This document shows, one piece after another, positions 14,820-60,163 of a stretch of DNA of 64,000 bases. Numbering within the stretch: the first letter of the stretch is position 1; every line of letters begins with the position of its first letter. The stretch lies in contig CAVSHF010000005.1 in assembly GCA_963727805.1 (NCBI GenBank), positions 544,001 to 608,000 of the forward strand, in the 5' to 3' direction. Source of the stretch: an uncultured Nitrospiraceae bacterium (GTDB taxonomy: Bacteria; Nitrospirota; Thermodesulfovibrionia; Thermodesulfovibrionales; Dissulfurispiraceae). Below the pieces are notes generated by a model. The model made no database searches and was not told the origin of the DNA. It was given only the letters and a program-made list of their open reading frames with translations. The position numbers and the translations under genes are program-made.

Positions 14820-14902
14820 CAACTAGCAGTTACTATTTGCTATGATGCTAAAAGTGTGCTATAGTTGCAAAAAGATGAAAAAGGAATTTCATATATTAAT
14901 CG

Positions 14903-15208: not shown

Positions 15209-15404
15209 CGAAACGTCTCGCAGGATGACATAAAACTGCCCACGGCCTACCCGTAAGCTTGAGCGTGTAGGAGGGTTAACAATTACCGATAGAAATAAAG
15301 CGTCTTCACTAAGGCTGGCGCTATCGAGTAGAAAGCTCCAGGTTGAAATAGAGCTTTGCGGCTACAGATGAACGTTGTCCCTAAAATACTAGTGAGCCTA
15401 CACT

Positions 15405-18720: not shown

Positions 18721-18741
18721 CACTCTGAGCCGTAAATCCAG

Positions 18742-25862: not shown

Positions 25863-26951
25863 TCAGTCCTTCATGGGCTTGATGAACATGAAGTAGACCA
25901 TTGTCCAGTTCCCCAGGATTATGAAGACAGTTGCAACGATACTTTGCAGCGCCAGTCCTGACACACCTGTCAGGGCATGTCCCACCGTTCAACCACCGGC
26001 AAGTGCGCCTCCTATGCCCATAATAACTCCTCCGAAAAAGACCCTTACCAGTTCCGCAGCGTCTCTCGGGGTGGTCAGTTTGAATTCTGAAAGCCCCTTG
26101 GCGCTAATATAAGCACCCAAAGGAACACCTAAAATATAGAGAGAACTCCATGAGATGGCACCATAGTTAAAGATGCTGAAAAGTTGGTCATTTTTTGCAC
26201 CACTGTCTCCGGTAAGGAAGAACATCATTGATTCAGCGAGAGGGCCTGAGAACGAAAGACCCCTTGCGCGACCTCCCCACTGAAAAGAAGTCCACCATGC
26301 GCCGACTATGACCAGACCGACAAGGAGTCCGCCCAGTGACCATGACCAGCCCTTCTTCGGCTGTTTGGCGAAAGGCTTTCCTTTGAGAATGACCGGAATC
26401 AATATGCCCACAATAACGGCGATAATAATCCATTTGTAGTCGGGACCTCCCAAAATGTCCCACAGAGCGGGATTGGCAATCGCATCATCGCCCGTCCCTA
26501 TCGGCACCTTGTAGCTTTTCAGGAACTGCATAAGCGGCTGGAGCGGCCCGTGATAGCTGGCGATAAGGGACAAGCCAAATCCGAGCATCGCTACAAAGGC
26601 TGCGAACGCTCCCTCACCCTGCTTGTAAAGGACTCCGCTACCGCATCCTCCAGCCATGACTATACCTAGACCAAAAATATAGCCGCCGACAATGGCCGCT
26701 ATAGGAGCAAATGTCTGACGAGTCAGCCCGTCATCACCAAGAAATCCGAGTGCTTCAAGCCCATTTGAACCAACAATAGCCACAACAAGAGCGAGAAGCC
26801 ATGCGCGCAATAACGTTGTATCGTTTACAAAGATCACGTCTCTGAACGCTGAGTTCATTCAATATCTGCCGCGCTGCAGGACGAAACCGAAGACAAGACC
26901 TGTAAGGACACCGCTCAGGATGACCATTATGGTCGCCGGTTGTACCTCCAT
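25863..26951 (-). CDS. YeeE/YedE-family sulfur/selenium transporter with two predicted selenocysteines (U31, U321), 362 aa
   Basis: GGGAGG RBS and ATG 26951. Reads MEVQ...GFVLQRGRY-UGA-MNSAFRD...AGGCGSG...LAGG-UGA-TVGHALTG...KPMKD. Both UGAs sit at the family's conserved Cys positions (RGRFC, GGCT) and are followed by hairpins. Confidence 0.9.
25951..25976 (-). promoter_or_regulatory. Bacterial SECIS-like hairpin after UGA 25989-25991
   Basis: 12 nt after the UGA: GC-CCUGACA-GGUG-UGUCAGG-ACU-GGC, a 7-bp perfect upper stem with a G-rich apical loop. Confidence 0.85.
26822..26848 (-). promoter_or_regulatory. Bacterial SECIS-like hairpin after UGA 26859-26861
   Basis: 10 nt after the UGA: CGUU-CAGAGA-cguga-UCUUUG-ua-AACG. 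Confidence 0.7.
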
Positions 26952-27216
26952 CTGATACCTCCCTATTTTGTGATATTTTCCAGCCAATGGCCTTGTAACT
27001 GACAGACTAATCTCTTTCTATATGCAGGGGACTCCTCTCCTCATCACAGGCTATCAATGTGCATTTCGCTGTAACAGATGTCGAAGCTGTTTCTTTTATC
27101 AGTTTCAATCACTAAAGGCATACCGATTTTTTAGCATAAGCCGCGAATAAAAGTAAACTGCCTTAAGAAATCTGGGTGGCCGAGAAAGAGCGAAATTTTT
27201 GCCCGTACGTGTAATC

Positions 27217-27657
27217 TCAGATGCTGTGATAGAGATAGATAACCATGAAGATGCCGATTGCCATGACGGTAATCGCAAGAAGCATGTCGAGTAGCCTGGA
27301 TGGATGAAAGGTATCCTCTTCGATCTGATGCTCGACTTTCTTGAACCTGATGAATGAAAGCACTCCCATCAGAGCACCCAAACCTACAAGAATGATCCCG
27401 AAAATCGATGAATAGCCCATTTGCGATATAGAATCATGCGCTGCCTCGCGCACTTCATGTGTGCCAGGCGCCACAGAGACGTTTCCCACATAGAGCGAGA
27501 ACTGCTTGACGAAAATAGCAAATTTCTCGACGACAAACCCGAAGCCCATAATTCCGATGCTTGTCCGTATCCATGCGAGAAAAGTCCTTTCATTCGCCAT
27601 GTGTACACGGCGATTGCGTATTCTTTCAGACTTTCTCTTGTCGGATATTTCAGTCAT
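27217..27657 (-). CDS. YidH/DUF202 membrane protein
   Basis: R.H.ANERTFLAWIRTSI..M.FGF signature. Confidence 0.9.
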   Translation of the reverse strand: MTEISDKRKSERIRNRRVHMANERTFLAWIRTSIGIMGFGFVVEKFAIFVKQFSLYVGNVSVAPGTHEVREAAHDSISQMGYSSIFGIILVGLGALMGVLSFIRFKKVEHQIEEDTFHPSRLLDMLLAITVMAIGIFMVIYLYHSI

Positions 27658-27761
27658 AGGTTAAACCGATTGCACGAATACTTTAATTATAGCTAAAGAC
27701 TTAATAAGAAGGAAGGATTAATGGGACCAATATCAATGTAATGGAAACTAGGCGAATATGT

Positions 27762-28619
27762 CTATTGCGATTTGACGACAAGAACAGGACATGATGCAAA
27801 GCCAATCACTCTTGCGGTAACACTGCCCATGAGGAGCCGCCGCAATCCCGTTCTGCCGTGGGAGGACATGACAATGACATCGGCATTAACATCTTTTGCA
27901 ACTGACAGAATTGCTTTTGCACTATCGCCTTCACGGACAAACGCCTCTGATTTGACGCCCTTCGCTTCCGCTTCGCTTTTCACATCTCCTGCGTATTTCT
28001 TTGCCTTCATGATCATGGCATCGGCAACATCTGTGGCTTCGGCATAAAACTCATCGGGGACGTCAACTACCGACAGCGCTGTCAATGTACCGTTATACGA
28101 TTGAGCGAAATCTATCGCTCTTGCTGCCGCGGCCCGGCTGTATTTGGAGCCGTCCGTTGCGAAGAGGATGGACTTCCATCCCACCTCCGCATTGGACGGA
28201 ACGACCAGAACATCTTTCTGACTGTATCCTATTACCCGCGCCGTAACGCTTCCTATGAGCGTTTTTTCGATCGATCCCCTCCCCGACCGCCCCATGACGA
28301 TCAGGTCGGCATTCTCGGCCTCAGACAGATCAACAATCCTTTCGTAAGGGTCGCCTTGCTCGCAGACAGTCTTTATCAGCGCCCTTTCGCTGTGAGCCAT
28401 TTCCGTAGCTGCCGCAAGTGCCAGTTCACAGGGTTCATTCAATGCCCTCCGCAAATCTCCTATTGCCGTAGTTGATAAGTCCCCGTTATAATCAAGGGCA
28501 ACAGAAACGACAGTTATCCAGCATTTCTCGAAGACTGCAAGCTTGAGGGATTCCCGCAGAGCATGCATGCTCTGCTCTGAACCGTCGACAGCCACCAGGA
28601 TCTTACGATATCTGCCCAC
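27762..28619 (-). CDS. Tandem-domain universal stress protein
   Basis: Two USP domains (ILVAVDGS..DLIVMG..G....GSV; ILFATDGS..DVIVMSSHGRTG...MGSV..V.....CPVLVV). The start codon is GTG. Confidence 0.93.
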   Translation of the reverse strand: MGRYRKILVAVDGSEQSMHALRESLKLAVFEKCWITVVSVALDYNGDLSTTAIGDLRRALNEPCELALAAATEMAHSERALIKTVCEQGDPYERIVDLSEAENADLIVMGRSGRGSIEKTLIGSVTARVIGYSQKDVLVVPSNAEVGWKSILFATDGSKYSRAAAARAIDFAQSYNGTLTALSVVDVPDEFYAEATDVADAMIMKAKKYAGDVKSEAEAKGVKSEAFVREGDSAKAILSVAKDVNADVIVMSSHGRTGLRRLLMGSVTARVIGFASCPVLVVKSQ

Positions 28620-28623
28620 TATC

Positions 28624-29715
28624 TTACTGTGATACTCTTTCGAGGGCTTGTTCCACTGCAGGATGATGCTCCGCCCTGTATCCCTGCCACACTGATTTCA
28701 AAACTATAAAGGCGCCCACCAGAAGTGCGAAGGCCATGATAACAAAGCTCGACCGAGTCAAAACAGTGACCAGAGTTTCATCCAATGATCCCATAATCCC
28801 CAACTGCGAGAGATAAATCGGCACCATCAACCCGCGGCTGAAAATAACGATGACCATGATGAGTCCCATAACTAGCTTGATCATGAAAGGTTTTACATAG
28901 GTGGTTCCAATAGCGCCTAACTGAATGCCGAAGAGCGAACCTGCGAGGAGGATCATGGCAAGTCTGATATCGACGAGGCCATGCATGGCATATTTTAATG
29001 AGCCCCCAACCCCCATGACAAAAGCTACTACCAGCTCCGTTGCCGAAGCCATCAAGCTCGGCGCTCCCATAACATAGATCATGGACGGCACCCCGATAAA
29101 CCCTCCAACAGCGATTGTCGCCGCAAGCATCCCCGTAGCAAATCCGAGAGGGATAGTAAATAGTATCGAGATACGCGCGTTTAGACTCTTAAAATATACC
29201 ATGGTGTATGGAATGTTGACCGACTGTACCCACAGGGCCAGCTTGGAAGTCAGTTCTTTGGCATTGGTGTTTCCGGACCTGTATGTTTTTATAGCGTCGC
29301 TAAGGATAAAACCACCCACGACTGCAAGGATCACTATGAAAACAACACTCACATAGAGATTCGAACCGGCAGTTCCAAACGCTGCCTTGATTTTTTCCTG
29401 GATACTGGCACCGTAAAGGACACCAGCCTCTCCTGAAATTCCCATTACAATGCCGAGTTTCAGATCGACCTGTCCATAGCGGGCACGCTTAATCGAGCCA
29501 ACCAAGGCCTTGGGGAACTTATGGCACATGTTGCTTGCTACCGCAACGAGAGCCGGCACCCCCAGGCTCATCAGGGCGGGGGTCATTACGAATGCTCCTC
29601 CGGATCCGATGAACCCGCTGACGAGTCCACCGATAAAGCCCACGACGAAAAGATATAGTATATTTACTGAGTCAAGAGTGATGAAGTTAGCCGCTTGATT
29701 CGCTATGTCGTGCAT
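28624..29715 (-). CDS. TauE/SafE (TSUP) family transporter
   Basis: GF.GGL.SGFIG.GGAFV.TP and IAVGGFIGVP repeats; polytopic. Confidence 0.9.
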   Translation of the reverse strand: MHDIANQAANFITLDSVNILYLFVVGFIGGLVSGFIGSGGAFVMTPALMSLGVPALVAVASNMCHKFPKALVGSIKRARYGQVDLKLGIVMGISGEAGVLYGASIQEKIKAAFGTAGSNLYVSVVFIVILAVVGGFILSDAIKTYRSGNTNAKELTSKLALWVQSVNIPYTMVYFKSLNARISILFTIPLGFATGMLAATIAVGGFIGVPSMIYVMGAPSLMASATELVVAFVMGVGGSLKYAMHGLVDIRLAMILLAGSLFGIQLGAIGTTYVKPFMIKLVMGLIMVIVIFSRGLMVPIYLSQLGIMGSLDETLVTVLTRSSFVIMAFALLVGAFIVLKSVWQGYRAEHHPAVEQALERVSQ

Positions 29716-29966
29716 TACCGTGCCTCCTTCTTTTTAGACGCCTCGATTCCCATTACGCTCCAGAAACTGCCGGTAAACGAACCGTGCACATATGAAAATA
29801 AAAAAGCCACCACTATCGGCAGAAGAGCGAATAATCCCCCACGCCCGAAATAGTCAATCACTGGTTCCTGATAAAGCAATAAAGCCGCGTACATGGCTAT
29901 CGAAAGTCCCCCCCAAATAGCGGCGCTCGCCCAAGGTTTCTTCTTTTTGTTACTCTGCATGCCCAT
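29715..29966 (-). CDS. Small two-TM membrane protein
   Basis: ALLPI..AF.FSYVHG.F...FW...GI.A; translationally coupled to tauE. Confidence 0.8.
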   Translation of the reverse strand: MGMQSNKKKKPWASAAIWGGLSIAMYAALLLYQEPVIDYFGRGGLFALLPIVVAFLFSYVHGSFTGSFWSVMGIEASKKKEAR

Positions 29967-30020
29967 GTCCTCACCTTCCTCCTTTTATTTGTTTAATTAA
30001 TCACGTGTCGTTTATTTTGA

Positions 30021-30497
30021 TTAAGCGCCAACCACAACCAGCGGGCACTTGATCACATCCCTTACATCAGGCAGGATCTCAGCCTCATCACCGCATCCCG
30101 TATCTAGCCCTCCGTATGAATTCACTACTACATAATCGAAGCCTGAGTTCTGACGGGTAACGTCCACAACCGCTTTTTTCAGACATCCATCTACGACATT
30201 GAAGCGGTAGTCGATTCCCGCCTCCTTGAGTTCGGAATCCAGGCGCTCAACCATGGCCCTGCCTGATTCCATACAAAGAATTTCGAGGCCGGCCTTCATC
30301 CTTTTGCAGAAATTGAGGGCATACGTAAAGCACTTAACGTCTGATGACCGACCTGTGAGGACAAGCAATACCTTCTGTTTCGTTCCGGCCATCTCACGAG
30401 CCATTTCAAATTCTCCTGCCTCTGCAAAAGCCGTTGCAGCCATGATAGTCTCGAATCTCTTGATAAGGCTGCTAAGCTTCATCTTTTTGCTTTCCAT
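30021..30497 (-). CDS. Degenerate USP-like protein with N-terminal FAEAGEF motif
   Basis: GGAGG RBS before ATG 30497; MAATAFAEAGEFEMARE, then KVLLV..YA.NFC.R..A.LEIL..CPLVVV. Confidence 0.8.
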   Translation of the reverse strand: MESKKMKLSSLIKRFETIMAATAFAEAGEFEMAREMAGTKQKVLLVLTGRSSDVKCFTYALNFCKRMKAGLEILCMESGRAMVERLDSELKEAGIDYRFNVVDGCLKKAVVDVTRQNSGFDYVVVNSYGGLDTGCGDEAEILPDVRDVIKCPLVVVGA

Positions 30498-30617: not shown

Positions 30618-30632
30618 GTTGCATTTTGCAAC
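30618..30632. promoter_or_regulatory. Palindromic enhancer-like site
   Basis: GTTGCA-TTT-TGCAAC about 80 nt upstream of the sigma54 site. Confidence 0.7.
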
Positions 30633-30866: not shown

Positions 30867-32354
30867 ATGATGGACTATAAACCGAGCATCAGGCGGAAGA
30901 TAACCTTTGGTTACTATGCCGGAGTTGCGGTTATTCTCGCCCTGTTCGTCTTTACATTCACAGAACTGATTATCGTTGAAAAAAAGTTGACGTTCGGAGC
31001 GGTCATCAATGAATTTTTCGATATGACCCTTGAAATGAGACGCTTCGAAAAAAACTTCTTTCTTTATGAAAAGTATTCGGATTATCAGGAAAATATGCAG
31101 TACGTCACAAAAGCTCAGGACATCCTTGCGCAACATATCAATGAATACCGTACACTTGTGATAGCCGACAGACTGGAGGCCTTGCAAAGCGTCTTGAAGG
31201 AATACCGCGAACTCATGGAACAGTATGCCGTGCTCAAGCACGAGGACCCCAAGCGAGTTGCAATAGAAAAGTCCCTAAGGGAAAAAGGCAAAGAAATCAC
31301 TTCGTTTGCGGAGGATATCTCGAAGACCGAGCGGGAAAGGGTAAGTACACTGCTCGATCAATCGAGGATAGTTCTTGCCATAGCAATCGTCGTGCTTTCA
31401 CTTGGCGGTATCATTGTGGGGCAGATCATGTCCCGGATTGTAGTGAGACCCCTCAAGGAACTGGAGGAAAGCATGGTAGCCATCGCCGCCGGGGCTCGGA
31501 ATACTATCGACATACGCTCAAAGGACCGCGAAATCCATTCGCTCACGGCGGCATTCAACAAGATGCTGAGGGAACTAGAACTCCGGCAGCGACATCTGCT
31601 CCAGTCGGAAAAACTCGCCTCTCTTGGTACGCTCATGGCAGGCATCGCTCATGAACTCAACAATCCGCTGTCGAACATATCGACCTCTTCACAAATCCTC
31701 ATCGAAGAGCTTGAAGAGTCCGACGTTGAATTCAGAAAAGAGATGCTGCACCAGATAGAAACCCAGACGGAAAGAGCTCGTAATATCGTCCGGTCACTTC
31801 TGGATTTTTCGCGAGAAAAGGAGTTTAAGCGTGATATTCTCCCCCTCGGAAAGCTTATTCATGAAACACTTAATTTTATCAAGGGGCAGATCCCGGCCAG
31901 AGTCTCTATATCGGTCGAGGTACCAGAGGACATCGTTATCTTCGCTGACAAGCAGCGTATTCAGCAGGCTTTTTTGAACCTCCTCAAAAACGCTGTTGAA
32001 GCAGTAACGGAAGAGGGGAGCGTTTTCATACGAGCAGAAAGGCAGCTTCCCGAAGGCATGGAGAATGCTGAATCCTACATCCAGATGCTGGATAACAGCC
32101 GATGCAAGTCTTTCGGAGACGACGTTTACATCACTATCAGGGACACGGGAAGCGGTATACCGCTCGATATCCTGCCCCGAATAATGGACCCATTCTTTAC
32201 GACAAAGGATGTTGGGAAAGGATCGGGTCTCGGCCTCTCAATTGTTCATGAAATCATTGACGAGCACGATGGCTGCATCAGGGTCCATAGCGAGGAAGGC
32301 AAAGGCACGACCTTCATACTACGTCTGCCTGCAAAGGACGTCCGCTTTGAATAA
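30867..32354 (+). CDS. Membrane sensor histidine kinase (HAMP-HisKA-HATPase)
   Basis: Two TMs, [37 protein letters not shown]. Confidence 0.95.
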
Positions 32355-33705
32355 CTCCATTAGAATACTCATTGTTGATGACGAAAGAATAGCGCTCAAG
32401 AACCTCGAACATGTCATGAAAAAAGAAGAATACGACGTGGTCAGCACACAGAGCGGACAGAATGCCCTCAAGCTTCTCGAAGAGCAGCAATTTGACGTAA
32501 TCCTCACGGATCTCAAGATGGAGAAGGTTGATGGAATGCAGGTGCTTAAAAAGAGCAAAGAGCTATACCCCGATTCCGAAGTAATCATAATAACCGGGTT
32601 TGCAACGCTCGATTCTGCGGTAAAAGGAATGAAGCATGGGGCTTTTTATTATATCGCAAAGCCTTTCAAGCTCGATGAGGTGCGCCAAGTCGTTAAAGAG
32701 GCCGTCGAAAAAATACATCTGAAAAATGAGAACCGGCAGTTACGGGAGCAGCTCGAATCCTACAAGGGGAAGGTCAAAATCATAACCCAAAATACTGCTA
32801 TGATGAGGCTTCTCGATACTGCGAGGCAGATCGCTCCCACCGATTGCAATGTCCTACTGAGCGGCGAAAGCGGCACCGGCAAAGAACTCTTCGCACGGCT
32901 AATCCACATAGAAAGCAAGCGTTCAGAAGGGACCTTCTTCGCCATTAACTGCGGTGCCTTTACAGAAGAGTTGCTGGCAAACGAGCTTTTCGGCCATGAA
33001 AAGGGTGCTTTCACCAACGCATCAGCCATGAAGAACGGATTGATCGAGATGGCATCGGGAGGTACTCTGTTCCTCGACGAGGTAACTGAAATGACGCCCT
33101 CTATGCAGGTGAAACTGCTTCGGGTCATCCAGGAAAGAGAGGTCCTTCGGGTTGGCGCTACAAAGCCTATCAAGGTGGACGTCAGGTTTATCGCCGCTAC
33201 AAACAGGGACATCCATGACGTCATCAAATCAGGCAGTTTCAGACAAGACCTCTATTTTAGACTGAATGTCGTATCGCTGCATATCCCGCCTCTGTCGGAG
33301 CGCAAGGACGATATCCCCCTGCTCTGCTACTACTTCCTGACAAAATACTCGACTCTCATGAAAAAGGATGTTTCTGACATATCGGCGGATGTAATGGAAC
33401 TCCTTTCTAACTATGATTTTCCAGGAAATGTCCGGGAGCTCGAAAATATAATAGAGCGGGGCGTCGCCCTCGCCGGTAGTAACACCATAGAAATATCAGG
33501 TCTCCCTGATGACCTGAAAGAACTTAACATCAAGATATTCAGGAAGAAGGGAGGTAAGATCCCATCACTCGAAGATCAGGAAAGGGATTATATCACATGG
33601 GTGCTGACCGAGTTTGGGGGCAACAGGACTCTTGCCGCCCAGACGCTCGGCATCGACCGCGTATCTCTCTGGCGGAAGCTGAAGAAATACGGACTTGAGG
33701 AATAA
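32347..33705 (+). CDS. Sigma54-dependent response regulator (NtrC family); probable TTG start at 32347
   Basis: REC, GESGTGKE, GHEKGAFT, TLFLDEV, FRQDL.FRLNV, PGNVREL and Fis-type HTH. Confidence 0.95.
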   Translation: MNNSIRILIVDDERIALKNLEHVMKKEEYDVVSTQSGQNALKLLEEQQFDVILTDLKMEKVDGMQVLKKSKELYPDSEVIIITGFATLDSAVKGMKHGAFYYIAKPFKLDEVRQVVKEAVEKIHLKNENRQLREQLESYKGKVKIITQNTAMMRLLDTARQIAPTDCNVLLSGESGTGKELFARLIHIESKRSEGTFFAINCGAFTEELLANELFGHEKGAFTNASAMKNGLIEMASGGTLFLDEVTEMTPSMQVKLLRVIQEREVLRVGATKPIKVDVRFIAATNRDIHDVIKSGSFRQDLYFRLNVVSLHIPPLSERKDDIPLLCYYFLTKYSTLMKKDVSDISADVMELLSNYDFPGNVRELENIIERGVALAGSNTIEISGLPDDLKELNIKIFRKKGGKIPSLEDQERDYITWVLTEFGGNRTLAAQTLGIDRVSLWRKLKKYGLEE

Positions 33706-41510: not shown

Positions 41511-42835
41511 CACTAGTGTCCGGTTAAGAATCATATAGATTCAATTGGTTACGATTTACCATAGCATTTAATGCTGTGCCATTTTCCTGAAACGCTTGCT
41601 GCAAGGGCATTTTCTCGAAGATGGTGACCGATAGGATCTGTAACAACGTATAGAGCGAAACATCGAGATTGAGCCTTTTCTTGATGATAGCGATAAGAAC
41701 ATAAACGGAAACAGCGATCCAGATTTGGGATTTGACGGCATTTTCTGAAATGCCGTAGAAACGCTTTATGCGAAGATGTTGCTTGATCCATTTGAAGAAC
41801 AGTTCGATCTGCCAGCGGCTCTTGTATAGTGAGCATATGGTCAATGCTGGCAAGGTATGGTGATTGGTGAGAAACAGCAATGTTTTGCCGGACTCCGCGT
41901 CTTTGAAACGGATGCGGCGCAGATGGCCCGGAAAGTGTCTGCTGCTGTAATAACCATTCATGGCGATGGTCTGATCGCAGATCACGCCTGTAGTTCGATC
42001 TGCAGAGGCGGAATAAAGTCTTCTGGCATTCAGATTGGATTTGGCTCGGGTAACAAAAAAGCTGCCGGCCTGATGCAGGACATACAGACGCTCGAAGTCG
42101 AGATATGCTCGATCCATCACATAGAAGGCCCCGGCTTCTGGAATAAGCAGGTCCAGAACATTGATATCGTGAAGCTTGCCATCGGAGATATGAATAAAGC
42201 TTGGGATAGAACCCCTGAGGTCCATCAGCGTATGAACTTTTACGGCAGCCTTGGCAGTCCGAAAAGGAGCCCAAGGAAACATCGACAGGCAGAGGTCTAT
42301 GGTCGTAGAATCCAGAGCGTAGGCGGTATTGGAGATATCCACACCGAAGCTCTCTCCGGCATAGAGCTTTCTTGCTTGACCGATCAGCCGTTGAGCGAAG
42401 TCTGCGTAAATGCGCCAATCGCGAGATTCGTTGGCATCGGCCAGGGTCGAGCGACTGACTGGTCCTCGAAGGCCCATGTGATAAAGTTTTGCAGCTTGAG
42501 CCGACAAACAGGCTTCGATATCGCGGAGACTCTCCCGATAAGTAAGTTGCGCAAAAGCCATTATTCGAAATTGCTCGGCACAACGAAGACAGCGCACACG
42601 ATGGTCGCCGCTGTATTTCTGAACAATACGATGAAAAGTGCTCCACGGGAGAACGTCCATAATCTGAGCAAAAAGGGTCTTGCCTGTATTCATTGGTGCC
42701 TCCGGAACAACATGTTCCGAAACCATCACTGATATGCAGATGCAATTTCAAATCGACACCACCTTTTTTGCTCAGATTGCGATTGTTAATCATATGCTTA
42801 TGGGCTGCTTATTCATTTTTAACCGGACACTAATG
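41511..42835 (-). mobile_element. IS4-family insertion sequence
   Basis: Inverted repeats CA(C/T)TAGTGTCCGGTTAA; 9-bp direct repeat ATAGAACAT at 41502-41510 and 42836-42844. Confidence 0.95.
41524..42693 (-). CDS. IS4-family transposase
   Basis: FAQL..RESLRD, DSTTI.L, DR.Y.D and Y..RW.IELFFKW.KQ; ATG 42693 after GGAGG. Confidence 0.95.
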   Translation of the reverse strand: MNTGKTLFAQIMDVLPWSTFHRIVQKYSGDHRVRCLRCAEQFRIMAFAQLTYRESLRDIEACLSAQAAKLYHMGLRGPVSRSTLADANESRDWRIYADFAQRLIGQARKLYAGESFGVDISNTAYALDSTTIDLCLSMFPWAPFRTAKAAVKVHTLMDLRGSIPSFIHISDGKLHDINVLDLLIPEAGAFYVMDRAYLDFERLYVLHQAGSFFVTRAKSNLNARRLYSASADRTTGVICDQTIAMNGYYSSRHFPGHLRRIRFKDAESGKTLLFLTNHHTLPALTICSLYKSRWQIELFFKWIKQHLRIKRFYGISENAVKSQIWIAVSVYVLIAIIKKRLNLDVSLYTLLQILSVTIFEKMPLQQAFQENGTALNAMVNRNQLNLYDS

Positions 42836-49067: not shown

Positions 49068-51071
49068 TCAGAGGAGAACCTTGTCTGCCATCTCCTGAAC
49101 GCTTTCTGCAAAAAAGAAACTCACGTCTTTTTTTATCTTCGCAGGAAGGTTGTCAATATCCACCCTATTCTTAACAGGCAGAATTACTTCCTTGATCCCT
49201 GCTCTCCGTGCAGCAAGAATCTTTTCCCTTATGCCCCCGACAGGCAATATTCTGCCGCTGAGCGTAAGCTCGCCTGACACCGCTACATCTCGTCTGGCAG
49301 GCCTTCCCATAAGAAGGGAGATAAGCGCCATAGCGATCGTGACCCCGGCCGACGGGCCATCCTTTGGTATGGCTCCTGCGGGCACATGGATATGGATATC
49401 ATGATTTTCGAAGAAATCTTCAGGCAACTTGAATGTCCCCGCATTACTTCTTACATAACTCAGAGCGGCTTGAGCAGACTCGCGCATTACTGTACCAAGA
49501 GAGCCGGTGAGGATAAGCTCTTTGCTGCCCCACATCTTCGCTGCCTCCACAAATATAATATCACCACCTGTTTCAGTCCAAACCAAGCCAGTGGTGACTC
49601 CTATGCGGTTCTTGGCAGTCGCTGCCTCGAAATCATATTTTCTCGGGCCGAGGAATGATTCGACCACTTCCGGCGTGATCCGAAGAACTTCTGCAGGACA
49701 CTTTTTCAGGACTGTTTCTTTGGCTATCTTGCGGCACACGGTTGCGATCTGCCGTTCAAGACCCCTCAGTCCCGCTTCCTTTGTGTATCCCTGTATGATT
49801 TTCGCAACTGCTTCTGTATTAAATTTAGGTGGGCATTGAGACAGGCCTTGCTCGCGGACCTGTCTTGGAATGAGATACCGTTGGGCGATCATTTCCTTGT
49901 CCTCCTCGGTATATCCGGAGAACTCGATGACCTCGAGCCTGTCAAGAAGGGGTTCATAGATATTATCAGCTACATTAGCCGTCACAATAAACATCACACT
50001 TGAAAGATCAAAGGGGACATCGAGGTAGTGATCTATAAATGCGCAGTGTTGTTCGGGGTCAAGCACCTCCAGAAGAGCTGAAGCAGTGTCAACCCTGGAC
50101 TCGTTATGCATCTTGTCTATCTCATCGAGCATAAGGACAGGATTCGCAGACTGAGCACGTCGTATTTCTTCGATGATTCTTCCCGGCATGGCGCCAGCAT
50201 AAGTCCTGCGGTGACCCCTGATTTCCGCTTCATCGCGCACACCACCAAGAGATATCCTGGAGAACTGTCTTCCAAGGGCATCGGCGATACCGTGGCCCAA
50301 TGATGTCTTGCCCGTGCCCGGAGGGCCAGAAAAGCACAGGACAGACCCTTTCACAGACGTTTTTGAAGCGCTCGCTACAGCCTTCTTTACTGAAGCCCTG
50401 ACTTCGTCGAGATTAAAAGGTTTAGTGATGTAGTCGAATGCACCCTTCTTAGTGGCTTCCAGGGCTGACTCAATGGAAGCATAAGCTGTTATAATAATCA
50501 CTCTCGTATCCGGATAGCTGATCCTGATCTTTTCGAGCAATTCCATACCACCCATTTTGGCCATTCTCAGGTCCGTTAGAACGATATCAAAGCTGGACAC
50601 ATCAGCTTTCCTTATGGCCTCAGTGCCACTTGCAGCGGTTTCGACGGCATAATTCTCCCGCTTCAGGATGTGCTCAAGATTTTTGACCGCGACCTCTTCG
50701 TCGTCTACAATCAGGATGTTGGGCTGCTTGCCCTGGGACTTCAGCAGTGTTTTTACAGCGAGATGTTCGAGAATCCGTTCTTTGACATTACCGAGCCCGA
50801 AATGCCTTTCACTGAGAATCATTTCCGCCCGGCGCAGGTCGAGGTTGTCTTCGGTCTTTTTGTTCCAAGGTAGACTGACAAGGTATTCAATATAGGTAAG
50901 GCCTATTGAATATTCCGCCATCAGGGGGCTAATCCTGGAGATAGTCAGAAGTTCATTCTGAGCTATCTCCAGGACTTCGGTAGGCATACTCGCGGAGAAG
51001 ATCTTCTGTTTCAGGTCTTCTATTGCATCTATCTGGAGTTTATCGTCACCTTTCTTAAAAAAGCTCATCAA
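49068..51071 (-). CDS. lon: Lon-family ATP-dependent protease lacking the N-domain, with an inserted receiver domain
   Basis: LPW..., HFGL..VKERILE.LAV, [REC aa ~118-233], GPPGTGKT, RGHRRTY.GA.PG, LDEIDK, PKDGPSAG (Ser) and GG..EK (Lys). Confidence 0.93.
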   Translation of the reverse strand: MMSFFKKGDDKLQIDAIEDLKQKIFSASMPTEVLEIAQNELLTISRISPLMAEYSIGLTYIEYLVSLPWNKKTEDNLDLRRAEMILSERHFGLGNVKERILEHLAVKTLLKSQGKQPNILIVDDEEVAVKNLEHILKRENYAVETAASGTEAIRKADVSSFDIVLTDLRMAKMGGMELLEKIRISYPDTRVIIITAYASIESALEATKKGAFDYITKPFNLDEVRASVKKAVASASKTSVKGSVLCFSGPPGTGKTSLGHGIADALGRQFSRISLGGVRDEAEIRGHRRTYAGAMPGRIIEEIRRAQSANPVLMLDEIDKMHNESRVDTASALLEVLDPEQHCAFIDHYLDVPFDLSSVMFIVTANVADNIYEPLLDRLEVIEFSGYTEEDKEMIAQRYLIPRQVREQGLSQCPPKFNTEAVAKIIQGYTKEAGLRGLERQIATVCRKIAKETVLKKCPAEVLRITPEVVESFLGPRKYDFEAATAKNRIGVTTGLVWTETGGDIIFVEAAKMWGSKELILTGSLGTVMRESAQAALSYVRSNAGTFKLPEDFFENHDIHIHVPAGAIPKDGPSAGVTIAMALISLLMGRPARRDVAVSGELTLSGRILPVGGIREKILAARRAGIKEVILPVKNRVDIDNLPAKIKKDVSFFFAESVQEMADKVLL

Positions 51072-51131
51072 TTACATTATTACATAAATGATGTCTTCAT
51101 GCCAGTGTCTTGCATCCTAATTATTTCTTAA

Positions 51132-51311
51132 TTATTTCCTCAAGCCTGGGGCCTTAAGTTCTTTCCTCGGCCTTAACGAGGGAACGACACGCTCAAACTG
51201 CCGCGGCCTGTCTTCCTCGCGCATATATTCTCTTGCAGTCTCAAATTCACCTGCTTCGGCAAAAGTGATGGCGACGAATAAATTCTCGATCTTTTTGGTC
51301 AGCCCTTTCAT
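51132..51311 (-). CDS. Small FAEAGEF-motif protein (59 aa)
   Basis: AAAAGGAGG RBS; MKGLTKKIENLFVAITFAEAGEFETAREYMREEDRPRQ... Confidence 0.8.
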   Translation of the reverse strand: MKGLTKKIENLFVAITFAEAGEFETAREYMREEDRPRQFERVVPSLRPRKELKAPGLRK

Positions 51312-51392
51312 AATGATCCTCCTTTTTACTCCTCTTAGTAAGGCCGGAGAGTTCTCTCCAGCTCCCAATTCCGTACTCGTTATTATATTTAA

Positions 51393-51408
51393 TGCATTTC
51401 TCATGCCA
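51393..51408 (-). promoter_or_regulatory. Sigma54 (-24/-12) promoter
   Basis: TGGCAT-GAGAA-ATGCA upstream of the small protein-lon pair. Confidence 0.7.
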
Positions 51409-51582
51409 GATCGTATCTCATTGAAAAACTAAGGCCACAGCTGACTCGCTAGATTGTAAGTACTTTCCTGATGATTCAAAATGAAACGCCGAAGGAACAC
51501 TGTAGTATTTTCAGCCCCCAACGCCGCCTAGTAACAACAGACCTATTAACCGGAGATAAACTGTTGCGTTTAAAATAGCTCT

Positions 51583-51597
51583 ATTGCATTTTGCAAT
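51583..51597. promoter_or_regulatory. Palindromic enhancer-like site
   Basis: ATTGCA-TTT-TGCAAT, the same 13-bp core as at 30619-30631; degenerate copy at 51473-51487. Confidence 0.65.
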
Positions 51598-51877
51598 GCA
51601 TATGGTAAAACAGGCAATTATCTTGAGAATTCACAAAGATTCGCCTTGAAAATCCCTACATCTCATGGTATGCTCAGAAAAGCGAATGCATTGCATTGCA
51701 TTGCAATGATTCGGGCGTTCCATCGTCAATCATGGCATCGAAAAAGTCCGGCGTGATACTGATCTTAAAGGGACAGAGCGAACAATCAGGACACTGCACC
51801 ATCTAATGTCGTATTCTCACAAGTTGTATCATGGGCAGTCCTGTCGCTTCATCATGACTGAGGAAAGGGGTCTATTT

Positions 51878-54031
51878 ATGCGTCCGCGCATCGATGAAGA
51901 GTTGGATACCGTTAAACGGCTTGACAAAGTAGTGGATCTGATCGAAATCGCTGGAGGGTTGCCGGCTTCTACAGTTTTGGTAGTCGGCGGGCACCGCGTC
52001 GAGGACCTTCGACTTGTCGAGTCTGCGAGGGACCACGGGATAGTCGACAGAATAATCCTCGTGGGCGTGAAAAATCGAATCACAAAATCCATAGACGAAG
52101 TTGGGATTGAAATTGATCAAAAAGATATCGTACCGGCTGACAATGACGAGCAGATCGCCAGAGCGACTGTCGAGTTCATCAAGACCGGCGGAGTCGACAT
52201 AGTGCTGAAAGGGGCCATCTCTACCCCCATTATCAACCGCAATATGCTCCCGTTGGCCATCCGTTCCACTGTGAGCCTGGCTACTGTCTTTGACGCCGCA
52301 TCCATAGCTGGTGGTCGACCCATCCTTCTCACCGACGCAGGTGTCACAACTGTATGCAACTTTGGTAGAATACAGGACCTGGTCCGCAATGCTGTTGATG
52401 TGGCGCGGACAGTAATGGGTATCGATCGACCACGGGTGGCAATGCTTTCTGCCAACGAAAAACAGATACCCTCTCTCCCATCAACCTGGATTGGGTTAGA
52501 GACTGCAAAAAGATCCTGGCCGGATGCCATTGTCTGCGGGCCGCTCTCATTTGATCTGGCAACCGATCCCGAATCGGTCTCTATCAAGGGTCTGCCGGAC
52601 GTGCCCAATGCTGCTGAGGTGGCTGGACGTGCCGATATTCTCGTCTGCCCCGGTATCGACACCGCAAATACGCTGTATAAGACAATATCAGCCATGAATA
52701 AATACGGTGAGGCTTCTCTGGCCAGCATCACAGTTGGCTTCCCCATGCCGTATATCATCCTTTCACGCTCGGACAGCCTGGAGACACGGCTGGTTTCGGT
52801 TGCCTTGTCTGCAGTCTACGTCCAGCGCAGCTTGCAGAAACATATCATCTCACAGCCTGACACAGTAGCGACCCCTGTTTCGAAAGCCTATCGTGTGCTG
52901 GCGGTCAACCCAGGATCAACGTCGATGAAAGTTGCGCTCTACGAGGGCGATCGTTGTCTGCAGCAGGAGGAAGTTGCCTGTGAGATTGTCCTTGGCGGTA
53001 CTGCTGCCCAGCGCAATATCCAAGCAGAGCAATTGACTCAGCAGGCAATCGACTTGCTTGATAACTGGAAAGAAACAAAAATAGATGCAGTCGCCGCCCG
53101 CGGAGGGTTTCTGTCGCGTCCGGCAGAAAAACTGGCTGGGGGCTCATATCTTGTCGCGGAAAAGTGCGATGGGAAAATCATCGTAGACGACGCCATTGTT
53201 TCAGCGGTGCGGGACTACCCTGAGAGGGAACATGCCAGTAATTATGGGGCCCCTGTTGCTGCCGCGCTGGCTGAGAAGCTAGGCGTTCCGGCACTAGTCG
53301 TAGACCCGGTGGTGGTAGATGAATTCAGCCTGGAAGCTGAACTGTCGGGATACGAACCGATAGTTCGCCGCAGCACCTCGCATGCCCTAAGTATTCGCGC
53401 AGCAGCTCGAAGGACGGCTCAGGATATCGGCCGTTCAATTGAGGATATCAATCTTGTAGTCGCGCACTTGGGCGGCGGAATTACAGTAGCGGCTGTTCGC
53501 GGAGGCAAGATCGTCGATAACAACATAGCCCTGCTTGGCGGCGGGCCATTCACGCCTCAAAGGGCCGGGGAATTACCCACCGGAGAACTAATCGATTTAT
53601 GCTATTCGGGGCGGTTCACACGGGATGAACTGATCGCGGAACTCACCAAAAAAGGGGGGCTCCAGTCTTATCTTGGTACCCACCGAATGGAAGAGATCGA
53701 GCAGCAGATCGCTACCGGCGACAAGCGTGCGAGTCTCGCTGTCGATGCGATGTGCTACCAGATAGCCAAAGAGATCGGCAAAGCATTCGTTGCAGTAGGA
53801 TGCGACGTGGAGGCGATCGTACTGACCGGCGGGCTGACTCACAGTAAGTTGGTGCGCGACAACCTTCGTCGACGGGTAATCCGGTTGGCGCCGGTCATCG
53901 TTTACGCGGGTTCACTAGAGATGGCAGCACTTGCCGCTGGTGCGATGGACATGCTATCAGGCCGTCGCACTCCAACTCGCTACAAGGCTTCCGTAACCAT
54001 TGACATATCCCGAAATATCGGAGGGACTTAA
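51878..54031 (+). CDS. Phosphate butyryltransferase-butyrate kinase fusion (start could be 51854)
   Basis: N-half: D.VLKG...T, L.TDAG, GPLS.DLA, VAG.ADILV.P, P.I..SR.DS. C-half: VNPGSTS.K, RGG, HASN.G, VAHLGGGI.V, GPF.P.RAG, IVLTGG. Confidence 0.9.
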   Translation: MRPRIDEELDTVKRLDKVVDLIEIAGGLPASTVLVVGGHRVEDLRLVESARDHGIVDRIILVGVKNRITKSIDEVGIEIDQKDIVPADNDEQIARATVEFIKTGGVDIVLKGAISTPIINRNMLPLAIRSTVSLATVFDAASIAGGRPILLTDAGVTTVCNFGRIQDLVRNAVDVARTVMGIDRPRVAMLSANEKQIPSLPSTWIGLETAKRSWPDAIVCGPLSFDLATDPESVSIKGLPDVPNAAEVAGRADILVCPGIDTANTLYKTISAMNKYGEASLASITVGFPMPYIILSRSDSLETRLVSVALSAVYVQRSLQKHIISQPDTVATPVSKAYRVLAVNPGSTSMKVALYEGDRCLQQEEVACEIVLGGTAAQRNIQAEQLTQQAIDLLDNWKETKIDAVAARGGFLSRPAEKLAGGSYLVAEKCDGKIIVDDAIVSAVRDYPEREHASNYGAPVAAALAEKLGVPALVVDPVVVDEFSLEAELSGYEPIVRRSTSHALSIRAAARRTAQDIGRSIEDINLVVAHLGGGITVAAVRGGKIVDNNIALLGGGPFTPQRAGELPTGELIDLCYSGRFTRDELIAELTKKGGLQSYLGTHRMEEIEQQIATGDKRASLAVDAMCYQIAKEIGKAFVAVGCDVEAIVLTGGLTHSKLVRDNLRRRVIRLAPVIVYAGSLEMAALAAGAMDMLSGRRTPTRYKASVTIDISRNIGGT

Positions 54032-54033
54032 AA

Positions 54034-54519
54034 ATGAATCAGACAGAAAAAAACCATTGGGTCTTCAGAGCCCACGTACTTGATCGTTCCGGTGCGCTGA
54101 CCAGCATCGCCTCCGCTTTCAGCAATGAGGGCGTAAGCATCGACACTGTCGTGGGGCACGGCTCCGAGGTCTTAGCGGGTACAGATGGCAGCGTTGTGCT
54201 GACCTTCTGTTGTAGCGAAGAGGAAAAAGACAGGATGGTCCGCAAGGTAAGACGTCTCAGCAAGGTGACTCGTCTGCAGGAGCATCCTTATGAGTCGCAG
54301 AGCCTGCGAAAGTCGGCTATCATTCTGGCAAACCGAGAGCTAAAGCCGATTGACGTGGTGGGAGAAATAGCCTTTCTGACAAGCGAGCTAGTGAAAGCCG
54401 ATGCTAACGGCTGGACTTATCTGCTGGCGGGCTCACCCAGTGACCTTGACCCTGTGCTGGAACGCCTCGAAACCGGAGGGGTTGTTAAGGACATCATCTA
54501 CTCGGTGCTGAGTCTCTAA
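54034..54519 (+). CDS. ACT-domain protein (acetolactate synthase small-subunit-like N-terminus)
   Basis: V.DRSGAL..IAS.FS..G.SID..; starts 2 nt after the ptb-buk stop. Confidence 0.7.
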   Translation: MNQTEKNHWVFRAHVLDRSGALTSIASAFSNEGVSIDTVVGHGSEVLAGTDGSVVLTFCCSEEEKDRMVRKVRRLSKVTRLQEHPYESQSLRKSAIILANRELKPIDVVGEIAFLTSELVKADANGWTYLLAGSPSDLDPVLERLETGGVVKDIIYSVLSL

Positions 54520-54564: not shown

Positions 54565-55209
54565 TCATTTGACTTTTGTTACGGCCGGCATCTTAATTAC
54601 CGTTTCACAGCCATTATTTAAGATAACTGCGCCGAGTTCCATGGCTATACCCTCTATCTCCCCAGCATTGCTTGTTTCTGCAATATCGGACGACGGCACA
54701 GTCCCTCCCTCGGAAGCCAGTGTTATGCAAAAGCATCCATCCGAAAAGTGCGTACCGATAGATATAACACCGTTGCTGTTAAGGGATAACATCTTTGCTT
54801 CAATCAGGCAGAACAAAAGATAATGGAAATGTATCGGATTGAGCATAGTCGAGGGCAGTCCGCCCCTTAATTGTTTATTAAAGGAGATACGGTTTCGGTA
54901 AGCCAGTCGGGTCATCAGTGCAACCAGTTCGTCAATAAGATCATTAATATGCACAGCCACATGGTCAGCTTCCATGCGGTGGGCAAACCGAGTGAGGTAA
55001 TCGGTGATCGCCGTAGCCCGCCCTACTTGTTCGTCAACGCATCCTATAAAGCCCAAAAAATGCTTTTCGTCCAGTGCTTTGGACTTCTTTATTTCTATGA
55101 CATCTTTCATCAACCCATTGGTTTCCTTGATGATGGCGAGGTAATTCTTTACCTCATGAGTATAGCAGGATATGATCCTGCCGACAAAGGACATCCGAAG
55201 GTCTTTCAT
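54565..55209 (-). CDS. Degenerate histidine kinase-like protein (H-box kept, ATP-binding boxes lost)
   Basis: THEVKN.LAII.E..GLMKD matches the neighbouring kinase H-box; no N-box, DxGxG or GxGLG. Confidence 0.8.
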   Translation of the reverse strand: MKDLRMSFVGRIISCYTHEVKNYLAIIKETNGLMKDVIEIKKSKALDEKHFLGFIGCVDEQVGRATAITDYLTRFAHRMEADHVAVHINDLIDELVALMTRLAYRNRISFNKQLRGGLPSTMLNPIHFHYLLFCLIEAKMLSLNSNGVISIGTHFSDGCFCITLASEGGTVPSSDIAETSNAGEIEGIAMELGAVILNNGCETVIKMPAVTKVK

Positions 55210-55580
55210 TTCAGCCTTTTCTCATACGCGCTGTCGATTTTGGCTACAAGCGTTTCTATTTCCGAAGGTTTAATGGCGTAATCCGCTGCACCATCCGCCG
55301 CCCATTCAGCAGCGCACTGCTCTGAGCCGTGCCCCGTCAGCAGGATCACCTCAGAGGAGGGGCTGATCTTTTTGATCTTTTTGAGCACCTCGACACCATT
55401 CATGCCGGGCATCTTGAGGTCGAGAAGGACAACGTCGGGCGGTTCATTCCTCACCTTGTCAAGAGCGTCCTCGGCGCAAAACACCGCATTCGCTTCATAG
55501 CCTCTTATCTGAAGCCGTTCTGCGAGAGTCGATGCAAATTCGACCTCATCGTCTACAAGGAGCACTTTTACTTTTGACAT
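55206..55580 (-). CDS. Stand-alone receiver protein
   Basis: VLLVDDE, LLDLKMPG, LTG.G, KP. Confidence 0.93.
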   Translation of the reverse strand: MSKVKVLLVDDEVEFASTLAERLQIRGYEANAVFCAEDALDKVRNEPPDVVLLDLKMPGMNGVEVLKKIKKISPSSEVILLTGHGSEQCAAEWAADGAADYAIKPSEIETLVAKIDSAYEKRLK

Positions 55581-55589
55581 CGTTTCCTC

Positions 55590-57356
55590 TCACTGCGCCT
55601 CTGCGCGTACCGGTAATTCTACATGGAACGTCGTACCCACACTTACTTCACTCTCGACACGTATAGAGCCTCCCAGCCTGTCAACTATTCCATACGTGAT
55701 CGAGAGGCCAAGTCCGGTTCCCTTACCCTTTTCCTTAGTCGTATAGAAAGGCTCGAATATATGCTTGATCTTTTCTTTAGCGATACCTTGGCCATTGTCC
55801 TTGATTGAGACCCTTATCCTTTCAGGATTGTGCAATTCCGTAGAAATGATTATCAAGCCCCCATCCTCTACGGCATCGATGGCGTTGTTGATGATATTAA
55901 GAAAAACCTGCTGGAGCTGTCCCTTGTCAGATATGATCCTGGGCAAGTCTTCCTTTAAGCGTGTTTCGAGGCGAATGTTCCTGTAAAGAATCTCCTTGTC
56001 CAGAAATTCAATGACTTCTCTTATCGTATCGTTCAGATCGATCTCCTCATGCCTTACGTCCATCCGACGCGCAAACCCCAAAAGTCGCTGTGTAATAGCT
56101 TTGCACCGGGTTACACTGTCTGATATGGCCTGAATGAGACCAATAAATTTCTCCTTGTCGATATGAGAACCTTTGGACATGAGAAGGAGATCCTTCATCA
56201 AGCCAGCCTTCTCGTTGATTATTGCAAGTGGATTATTAATCTCATGGGCGACACCTGCACCTAAACGGCCGATGGAGGCAAGCCTCCCCGAATGCTGGGT
56301 CTGGGCTATGGCCTCCTCCCGTTCCAACTCCGCCTCTCTAATCCAATTCACTAACGCAATTGAAATCTTGATATTCGCAATGATACCCAAAAAGATGAGA
56401 AAAACCGCAAGATATACTGAAGCCATGTCTCTTGTCAACAAATCAAGAAGTTTTGATTGTGCTGTAGAAGCAACAGTCATGCCCAGTATCCATGGAGATT
56501 TTTTGATAGACGTGTAGCCAAAGATCAGCGGCGTGCCACCGTTCTGCCGGACGTCAGATAGTATCACATCTTCCGTTGGACGAGGGACCTCGATGGCAAT
56601 TTTTTCAAGCACATTGCCGTGATATCTCGACCGGGTCTGCAAAATGCCCTGATAGTTTATGATAAAGGCGTCGTCCCTACTCTTTAGGTTTACTATCGAT
56701 ACGTAACGATTGAGGGTCACCATATCAATAGTCGCCCTGAGTATACAGAATGTACCCTTTTCCGGCAACTCCTTCTTCACCGCAATTGCAAAATGGGGTA
56801 TTTTCCTGTAGCCCATAAAAACATCACTCACGTAGACACCTCTTACAGCCACCTCGTTGAACCAGTCCTGATTAGAGTAATTTTTGCCTTGCAGGGAATA
56901 TGGACCTGAGTAGCTTAGCTGCATGCCTTTGGAATCGATCAAGCCGAGATCGACTAGTTCCCCAAACTCTCTCTTGAATTTTATGAAAATATCATTAAGA
57001 TATTTTTCATCGGACAATTGCACAAAAGAATTAGCAGCAGCAAGAAACCTCAGGGCCGATATGCGCTCGTCTATAAAAAACTCAACAGACTGCCGGGTGC
57101 TTTCTATATTCCCTCTCATCTGGTTGTTGAAGTCCTCTTTAAAAGCCCCTTGAAGCGAGAGATAACTAAGGATCGTTATCATTATGAGAGGGACGCCAGC
57201 CAAAGTACCTATAAGGAGAAAAATCCTAATTTTAAGAGTTGTATAGCGGTCTTTCGAAAGAGAGGGAACAGACGTAGACGACGGATCTGTATGCAGCAGC
57301 TTCCTGTAGCGGGTTATCATCTTCTGAACCAGCCCATTAGGTCGTTCATCTGTCAT
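55590..57356 (-). CDS. Sensor histidine kinase with Cache-type periplasmic domain
   Basis: GVAHEINNPL, NIINNA.DA, DNG.GI, FEPFYTTK, GTGLGL. Confidence 0.95.
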   Translation of the reverse strand: MTDERPNGLVQKMITRYRKLLHTDPSSTSVPSLSKDRYTTLKIRIFLLIGTLAGVPLIMITILSYLSLQGAFKEDFNNQMRGNIESTRQSVEFFIDERISALRFLAAANSFVQLSDEKYLNDIFIKFKREFGELVDLGLIDSKGMQLSYSGPYSLQGKNYSNQDWFNEVAVRGVYVSDVFMGYRKIPHFAIAVKKELPEKGTFCILRATIDMVTLNRYVSIVNLKSRDDAFIINYQGILQTRSRYHGNVLEKIAIEVPRPTEDVILSDVRQNGGTPLIFGYTSIKKSPWILGMTVASTAQSKLLDLLTRDMASVYLAVFLIFLGIIANIKISIALVNWIREAELEREEAIAQTQHSGRLASIGRLGAGVAHEINNPLAIINEKAGLMKDLLLMSKGSHIDKEKFIGLIQAISDSVTRCKAITQRLLGFARRMDVRHEEIDLNDTIREVIEFLDKEILYRNIRLETRLKEDLPRIISDKGQLQQVFLNIINNAIDAVEDGGLIIISTELHNPERIRVSIKDNGQGIAKEKIKHIFEPFYTTKEKGKGTGLGLSITYGIVDRLGGSIRVESEVSVGTTFHVELPVRAEAQ

Positions 57357-58066
57357 CGTAGTAAGATTACCCTCAACTTACACAAATCCCTTTGCATGCG
57401 CCTCAATTAAAATCACCTTGTCGCATTATAATACTTTAAAGTTAATCAATCGCACAACAGTAATACACAAATAATAACGATGTTAATTTCTTCTTAGTGC
57501 CATTATCGTTGTTGGAATATTTTATTAAAATGCTGGGTTAGGCTATCATACACTAGACAGTAGGATTATTATACGGATGCGACCAGAAAACCGTCGAACT
57601 TTCGTGTGGAGAGCAGCAGCGCGTAACTGTAGCGAGGAAGTTGCTGTTGTAACTCCACGTTGTTCTTGCCAACTAACCGACGTGCAATGTCGATACAGCA
57701 ACGGGTGAACCCCTTTTCAGAGAACTCATCGACATCAACTAAAAGCAAGGTGTTACATTTGTCATCTTAACGCACAACGAATCGCTCTCCAAGAGGTGCT
57801 ATCGCGTCATCAAGATGATTGATGTGATATTATTGAATCGTCAGGGGGTAATGGGCTATGATATACCTTAACTTTTCCGTTAAGGAGGGATTGCCATAAA
57901 ACTTTTGTTGTCAGATGTTTCCACCAAAGAGATAGAACCTTCAAAACTGAATAAAACAGCGAGCATCATCCTTGATAAAATCAAGTGGGTACATGTACCT
58001 ATTTTGTATGTTCCTGTTTAACACAATTATAGTGTTTTAAATACTAAAGGAGGTCTTATTGTAGTT

Positions 58067-59107: not shown

Positions 59108-59121
59108 ATAAGGAGGATTAA

Positions 59122-59538: not shown

Positions 59539-59675
59539 ACCAGAACAGTATTGTATAGAGCCCCCGGCATTCACTCTATTTGAAATGAAACCGACGGACT
59601 GTTCATGGTTGAATGGAAATAAAGTTTAACATTTAGCCAAAAATATCTTAATATATAGTATAAGGTAAGGAGGTT

Positions 59676-60137: not shown

Positions 60138-60163
60138 TTTTCCTTTGAAAACTGCAAGGCACC

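Follow-up and report, generated by a model that had tools for sequence, protein, structure and literature searches.

A LonA-derived protease with an inserted receiver domain, no N-domain and a candidate peptide substrate

AAA+ proteolysis is known to be placed under two-component control by separate adaptors, of which the receiver-domain protein CpdR is one. The closest described system with a receiver and a Lon in one chain is DVU3303 of Desulfovibrio vulgaris Hildenborough, a Lon-bearing response regulator with a kinase and a sigma-54 partner (Rajeev 2011, PMC3333781), worded in the accessible part of that paper as "RR ... containing a lon protease" and "La, truncation". The same text calls DVU3303-DVU3304-DVU3305 a "three-component system", notes orthologues in Thermodesulfovibrio, and proposed in 2011 that phosphorylation may be required for the protease activity (PMC3333781). 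As given in the accessible part of a second study, Lon, kinase and regulator mutants of D. vulgaris displayed the same fitness sign in chlorate with cofitness above 0.9, while the regulon member DVU3299 displayed the opposite sign (Trotter 2023, PMC10102598). DVU3303 is the first gene of its listed operon in the regulon table of PMC4641369.

Going by this published description rather than by a named DVU3303 sequence, the receiver-Lon encoded in the window (the whole stretch of DNA analysed, 64,000 nucleotides; Table 1) appears to belong to the known DVU3303 kind, and its architecture is not new. Both systems combine a receiver and a truncated Lon in one chain, a linked histidine kinase and sigma-54 regulator (15 kb away here), a membrane/Usp target operon of the DVU3298-3302 type and a palindromic box, which in the window is a candidate activator site. 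They differ in that the Lon and peptide genes of the window stand apart from the kinase-regulator pair, at a distance of 15 kb, and have their own promoter. The accessible parts of the DVU3303 papers do not describe where the receiver is inserted, that the long helix is lost, or the peptide with its tail; what is added here is the displaced operon with its apparently retained control elements, and a candidate substrate. An earlier note on this DNA knew of no characterised example. No biochemical study or substrate of the receiver-Lon family, and no phosphorylation, ATPase or proteolysis data on it, were found in the literature searched, which covers few of the subscription journals. The note overstated the novelty, because both the family and the idea of phospho-activation have been in print since 2011.

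Control in trans of an AAA+ protease, by two-component proteins or by tail peptides, is represented by RssB (with ClpXP) and by LarA and HspQ (PMC11882793, accessible part), whereas here the receiver is carried in the protease chain. LarA also needs the Lon N-domain (PMC11882793), which the receiver-Lon lacks.

Table 1. Features of the receiver-Lon locus and of the distant kinase-regulator cluster, in window coordinates
Feature	Coordinates	Strand	Remarks
Receiver-containing, N-domain-less LonA	49068..51068	-	666 aa from ATG; TTG at 51071 adds one residue
Short N-terminus with invariant Phe4, then retained three-helix bundle	50874..51068	-	from alignment and predicted helices
Inserted segment (residues 109-237) with receiver domain	50361..50747	-	phospho-Asp codon 50571-50573
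AAA+ core and lid (Walker A/B, pore Tyr, sensor Asn, Arg finger, sensor-2 Arg)	49701..50339	-	
Lon protease domain, Ser-Lys dyad	49074..49679	-	PF05362, E 2e-82
59-aa peptide gene: N-terminal FAEAGE-type helical motif, Arg-rich C-terminal tail	51132..51311	-	directly upstream of Lon
Sigma-54-type -24/-12 promoter element	51394..51407	-	upstream of peptide-Lon
Palindromic box (6+3+6)	51583..51597	.	candidate DVU3305-type activator site
Second palindromic box	30618..30632	.	upstream of TauE/Usp operon
HAMP-HisKA-HATPase histidine kinase	30867..32354	+	likely cognate kinase
Sigma-54 response regulator (DVU3305 type)	32347..33705	+	receiver 53.5% to Lon receiver
Likely target genes: 158-aa protein with FAEAGE motif (no Pfam family), 83-aa membrane protein, TauE, Usp, DUF202, Sulf_transp	25989..30497	-	

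Architecture and distribution of the receiver-Lon

The gene is an intact open frame (49068-51071, minus strand) of 667 aa from the TTG at 51071; the next ATG, at 51068, gives 666 aa, the length of most close homologues, so that D166 counted from the ATG is the D167 of the earlier note. Pfam displayed Response_reg at 119-228 (E 2e-30), AAA at 245-385, Lon_lid at 407-457 and Lon_C at 465-666, and the TIGR00763 score of 693.7 exceeded the cut-off of 608.05. There was no Pfam match to the Lon N-domain family, nor to Sigma54_activat or HTH_8, both of which are found on the separate regulator, and no N-domain-coding frame was found upstream of the gene. Against E. coli Lon (6u5z), residues 15-108 aligned with 249-342 and residues 238-661 with 345-766. 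About 240 N-terminal residues of E. coli Lon are thus missing, including both the globular N-domain and the long helix of LonA, and 129 residues take the place of two in E. coli Lon. In TTG numbering, the receiver harbors D123-D124, D167, T195 and K217-P218, the ATPase Walker A (249-256), Walker B (D316-E317), pore Y291 and Arg finger R378, and the protease the dyad S574 and K617.

These results bear out the earlier note on the absent substrate domain, the complete receiver within the ATPase module and the positions of its residues, the intact Walker motifs and dyad, and the shortness of canonical LonA at this point. Its helical start was right in that the N-domain is gone, whereas the part retained is a three-helix bundle (about residues 6-66); the gap it wrote before Walker A actually reads F-S.

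A single-sequence fold reached a pLDDT of 34.5, and an alignment-based model (pLDDT 85.4, pTM 0.73) was used instead. It placed N-terminal helices at 5-26, 30-45 and 51-65, AAA+ helices at 78-88 and 93-111, a receiver of five strands and five helices at 117-237, and the Walker A strand at 243, with receiver helix 5 running into that strand within about five residues. All Foldseek matches listed for the model were Lon structures, the best chains having a target TM-score of 0.83-0.87. The protein thereby shares with LonA (TIGR00763; E. coli 6u5z, M. taiwanensis 4ypl) the three-helix bundle, AAA+ domain, lid and Ser-Lys protease, and differs from it in that a receiver interrupts the chain ahead of the Walker A strand, the N-terminus is short and has an invariant Phe, and the globular N-domain and long helix are lost, and with them the entry gate. 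On its sequence, it is LonA-derived and not a canonical LonA. The short start, of the Met-x-(Phe/Ile)-Phe-Lys-Lys type (51057-51068, minus strand), keeps Phe4 in 101/101 receiver-Lons and could be a membrane or kinase tether.

The architecture search proposed in the earlier note, in which 8000 candidates were scored and at least 120 homologues obtained, recovered receiver, AAA and Lon_C together in all 120 homologues among the matches listed; those with names were Nitrospirota, and the closest belonged to Dissulfurispiraceae. Across 101 aligned receiver-Lons from two phyla, D122, D166, K216, P217, the Walker A Lys, the Walker B Glu and the Arg finger (ATG numbering), together with the Ser and Lys of the protease dyad, were invariant. 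The pore Tyr was kept in 100, and D123 and T194 in 99 each, the two exceptions at T194 being Ser. The insert measured 133 or 134 residues between fixed anchors in every one of these proteins. In whole-genome searches, 18 of 60 relatives had the architecture (one copy split, one cut by a contig end), as had 22 of 151 genomes from the phylum to which G061 belongs and 25 of 61 genomes from the family of G062 (a Desulfovibrionaceae-level sample, hereafter the third sample), the last at 49-58% identity. The longest open frame among the matches in these three samples was 806 aa. The family is common in the Nitrospirota-like and Desulfobacterota-like samples searched. RNA-library contigs from relatives overlap parts of the gene, which is not a measure of expression.

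That the gene is a truncated relic or an assembly chimera is exceedingly improbable and is refuted by the homologue set, as the same architecture recurs in all three samples with strictly conserved residues. The annotation of DVU3303 as a "truncation" (PMC3333781, accessible part) and one relative with a copy split into two ORFs (G013, L126:8662-10678, beside a truncated-looking cluster) would fit a relic. Both junctions that the earlier note had marked for checking are bridged by independent contigs from other runs, the one near 50373 by X4 (50222-50678), X15 (50323-50676) and X16 (50327-50477), and the one near 50720 by X4 (50686-51596); one contig covers the 5' junction together with the peptide gene and promoter. 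The GC and GC3 of the insert match those of the remainder of the gene.

A FastTree phylogeny on ATPase and protease columns only separated 37 receiver-Lons from 71 other Lons by a branch of support 99, the set having been gathered by similarity to the receiver-Lon gene and the outgroup Lons by a scan of genome contigs in which ordinary Lons predominated. A single origin is likely, though not proven, on this tree; no evolutionary intermediate was found in it, the sister Lons being full-length and without receiver. A full-length housekeeping Lon, 56% identical to the receiver-Lon, is also encoded in this genome, and full or partial copies occurred in all five other genomes checked. The receiver-Lon might therefore be a regulatory subunit that joins housekeeping Lon rings and tunes them when phosphorylated, the more so as an engineered Lon without residues 1-241, the same boundary, binds and inhibits full-length pentamers (PMC10643698, accessible part). 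This is very unlikely: the engineered constructs were monomers through interface mutations (PMC10643698), the two Lons fall in separate clades at 56% identity, and all catalytic residues of the receiver-Lon are conserved.

Kinase, sigma-54 regulator and promoter elements

The kinase lies in the same cluster as the receiver-Lon in 16 of 17 relatives' loci, and kinase and sigma-54 regulator together stand beside it in 16 of 17 loci and in 18 of 20 loci of another sample. In the same-genus loci L111-L114, the peptide and Lon genes lie between the kinase and the 158-aa gene, with the target genes directly after Lon. In the window, the TauE, Usp and small membrane genes occupy 27762-30497. A "Usp-like" label for the 158-aa protein was rejected, as Pfam gave it no support.

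Among the 57 receiver-like ORFs of the genome, the best match of the Lon receiver is the regulator of this distant cluster (53.5%). The helix-1 and beta5-alpha5 strips, which we take to be the kinase-contact strips of receivers, are nearly the same in the Lon and regulator receivers (15 pairs shown, 18 given). A second kinase (55590) is nearer, at 4.5 kb from the receiver-Lon, and the regulators beside it differ from the Lon receiver in the kinase-contact strip. A receiver-only tree was poorly resolved, Lon and cluster-regulator receivers mixing in one weak group with two long-branch strays.

Upstream of the peptide gene, the GG and TGC of the sigma-54 element were invariant in 9/9 aligned upstream regions, and a box related to that at 51583 was found at the same place in most aligned relatives. 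By eye, the boxes at 51583 and 30618 each differ at one position in 15 from the site given for THEYE_A0745, the Thermodesulfovibrio orthologue; between the two boxes there are two mismatches in 15. The 10 arm bases common to both occur six times in the genome against 4.0 expected, so that the box alone is not rare. Despite the 15 kb distance, the displaced Lon gene thus appears to keep a sigma-54 promoter, a regulator-type box and a look-alike receiver.

The earlier note had read the protein as a kinase-switched protease in which phosphorylation may act on ring assembly or the ATPase, as in NtrC-type activators. The switch residues, the receiver kinship and the D. vulgaris cofitness lend the kinase switch partial, indirect support. 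In NtrC, the receiver precedes the AAA+ domain. The two share a receiver of the same subfamily beside an AAA+ domain, and differ in that the receiver here splits that domain and the predicted output is proteolysis; the comparison is loose because the receiver is inserted inside the AAA+ domain instead of being appended ahead of it.

Shared kinase-contact strips would fit equally well a receiver that serves as a phosphate sink or kinase-docking module, and as the direction of control cannot be read from sequence, phosphorylation might also turn a constitutive protease off. Such readings are somewhat unlikely, since the switch Thr/Ser, the aromatic, the Lys-Pro and the fixed linker lengths are kept as for conformational output. 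A sink is further disfavored by the fitness effect of Lon loss, of the same sign as loss of the kinase or the regulator, unless that effect is polar; DVU3303 being the first gene of its operon, the shared sign could indeed reflect polarity.

Several other features were observed around these genes. Between the box and the sigma-54 element lies a further conserved element (51460-51490), possibly a site for IHF or a second regulator, and a short array of 5-base repeats with overlapping palindromes lies upstream of the promoter (51685-51708). A fused phosphate butyryltransferase-butyrate kinase (741 aa) and then an ACT-domain protein follow on the plus strand (51806-54519). A separate signalling cluster (54565-60544) holds a dCache kinase, a 214-aa kinase remnant, a second TauE and three single-domain regulators, one of which carries the FAEAGE motif as a C-terminal tail; in L116 and L117, a cluster of this type directly adjoins the Lon cluster. 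Insertion-sequence or integrase genes are found at 13465-19938, 41524-42729 and 61386-62156, the 41524 gene (DDE_Tnp_1) sitting between the kinase pair and the displaced Lon. At 63672-63953 (minus strand) lies a 93-aa ORF rich in Cys, which has repeated Cys-x-Cys-Gly units and matches no Pfam family. Elsewhere in the genome, a third kinase/sigma-54/TauE/Usp cluster (G000:C3:1888082-1894799) encodes a motif-bearing 174-aa protein and has no Lon. In L201, L203, L205, L206 and L208, the receiver-Lon is convergent with the regulator and kinase, and no TauE operon or peptide was detected within 12 kb, a minimal form of the system.

The 59-residue peptide and the proposed circuit

The peptide matched no Pfam or NCBIfam family, and its look-alikes in the Atlas were hypothetical proteins. 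In 15 of 17 loci, the cluster includes an unannotated peptide of about 60 aa, and in seven of them the peptide gene lies immediately upstream of Lon. The 158-aa protein has the same FAEAGE-type motif at its beginning, and the regulator at 59676-60137 carries it at its end. Two more stand-alone copies of the peptide with full tail (G000:C5:37345-37527 and G000:C3:100462-100644) are distant from any Lon, each preceded by a sigma-54-like element and related boxes.

The motif was found in 19/19 Lon-positive against 22/42 other genomes in the first sample, 16/22 against 8/129 in the second, and 16/25 against 8/36 in the third. A Lon-specific motif was rejected, given its presence in the 22 Lon-negative relatives. 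The tail behaves differently: beside Lon it is Arg-rich and ends in Arg-x-Arg/Lys-small, and in Lon-less clusters it is mostly decayed while the motif persists. The median Arg fraction of the tail was 0.25 in 33 Lon-positive genomes and 0.07 in 16 Lon-negative ones, by a metric chosen post hoc, on kin that are not independent and after filters that dropped some rows (e.g., L156, L182, L185, L176 and L179). The tail pattern matched in 23/33 and 2/16 of these genomes, respectively. In G004, one of the two Lon-negative matches, 120 bases separate the end of the peptide from a contig end, and the housekeeping Lon itself is fragmentary. Comparisons within genera (G034 with G015, G031 with G008) pointed in the same direction. 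In the second phylum, the motif-pattern count of 9/17 against 0/2 was not significant (p 0.47).

With the threshold fixed beforehand (Arg fraction at least 0.15), all 10 stand-alone peptides beside a receiver-Lon in the third sample passed, and these also ended in Arg-x-Arg/Lys-small (L194 was dropped by the filters). In that sample, three motif proteins from clusters without Lon, in genomes that have one elsewhere, were below the threshold. No stand-alone peptide was found in its Lon-negative genomes, so the threshold was applied to Lon-positive ones only. Exceptions occurred on both sides, the tail being absent from the Lon-positive G113, G144, G078 and G172 and partial in the Lon-negative G008, G032, G053, G056 and G205. 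The peptide is not an obligatory companion of the receiver-Lon, since in the third sample it showed at no more than 9 of 20 Lon loci, the other 11 showing none, and 9 of 25 Lon-positive genomes there had no motif match. In L217 and L218, proteins of about 120 aa carry the motif twice, and in L238 it lies near a second copy; these belong to Lon-less clusters and have a different, hydrophobic tail.

Because the peptide mostly retains its Arg-rich tail in genomes that retain the protease, it is a likely substrate of the receiver-Lon. It might instead be an adaptor or activator that replaces the N-domain, its motif pairing with motif-bearing clients and its tail docking on the protease. The same motif on three protein types of the clusters (with the 158-aa protein and the regulator tail at 59676-60137 as candidate clients), the tracking of receiver-Lon by the tail, and known Lon activators that act through C-terminal tails (LarA, HspQ; PMC11882793, accessible part) would all suit an adaptor. 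We regard it as unlikely: clusters without Lon still have the peptide, its motif intact, and in the third sample about half of the Lon loci show no peptide. A substrate with a function of its own is favored over a pure adaptor because the peptide outlives Lon while the tail does not. Complex prediction of Lon with the peptide (score 0.00, mark 0.32) spoke neither for nor against binding.

The reading preferred here, held with evenly balanced confidence, is that the N-headless receiver-Lon is the kinase-gated proteolytic output of the kinase/sigma-54 system and degrades mainly the 59-aa peptide. Its steps beyond co-occurrence are inferred. The kinase at 30867 would phosphorylate both the sigma-54 regulator and the receiver-Lon, and the phosphorylated regulator would transcribe the transporter operon and the peptide-Lon operon. 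Phosphorylation would activate rather than inhibit the protease, presumably through receiver helix 5, which would act both on the Walker A strand and on the helix that precedes the insert. Active Lon would then degrade a small set of regulon proteins, chiefly the peptide via its Arg-rich tail; the peptide motif may act as a brake on the system, and its removal would give a feed-forward loop. Removal of a brake would explain the same-sign fitness of the three D. vulgaris mutants, as polarity would too. Counting against the reading are the opposite fitness sign of DVU3299 and, in this genome, the 15 kb between Lon and its likely kinase when another kinase lies at 4.5 kb. As at least one C-terminal degron binds to the Lon N-domain (PMC11882793, accessible part), a headless Lon would need another route to its substrates.

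A bolder version, which is tentative and on the doubtful side, is a self-contained circuit in which a single kinase turns on a sigma-54 activator together with a headless Lon, and this Lon recognises a new class of Arg-rich C-terminal tag; the tagged peptide of about 60 aa would be either destroyed, releasing a brake, or a stand-in for the lost N-domain.

If true, this bolder version would mean that aspartate phosphorylation gates an AAA+ protease in cis and that its degron route circumvents the N-domain. A receiver built into the motor would amount to direct two-component control of proteolysis. The receiver-Lon would be a natural version of the N-truncated Lon engineered in structural work, and the peptide whose tail tracks it gives a concrete candidate substrate for this family.
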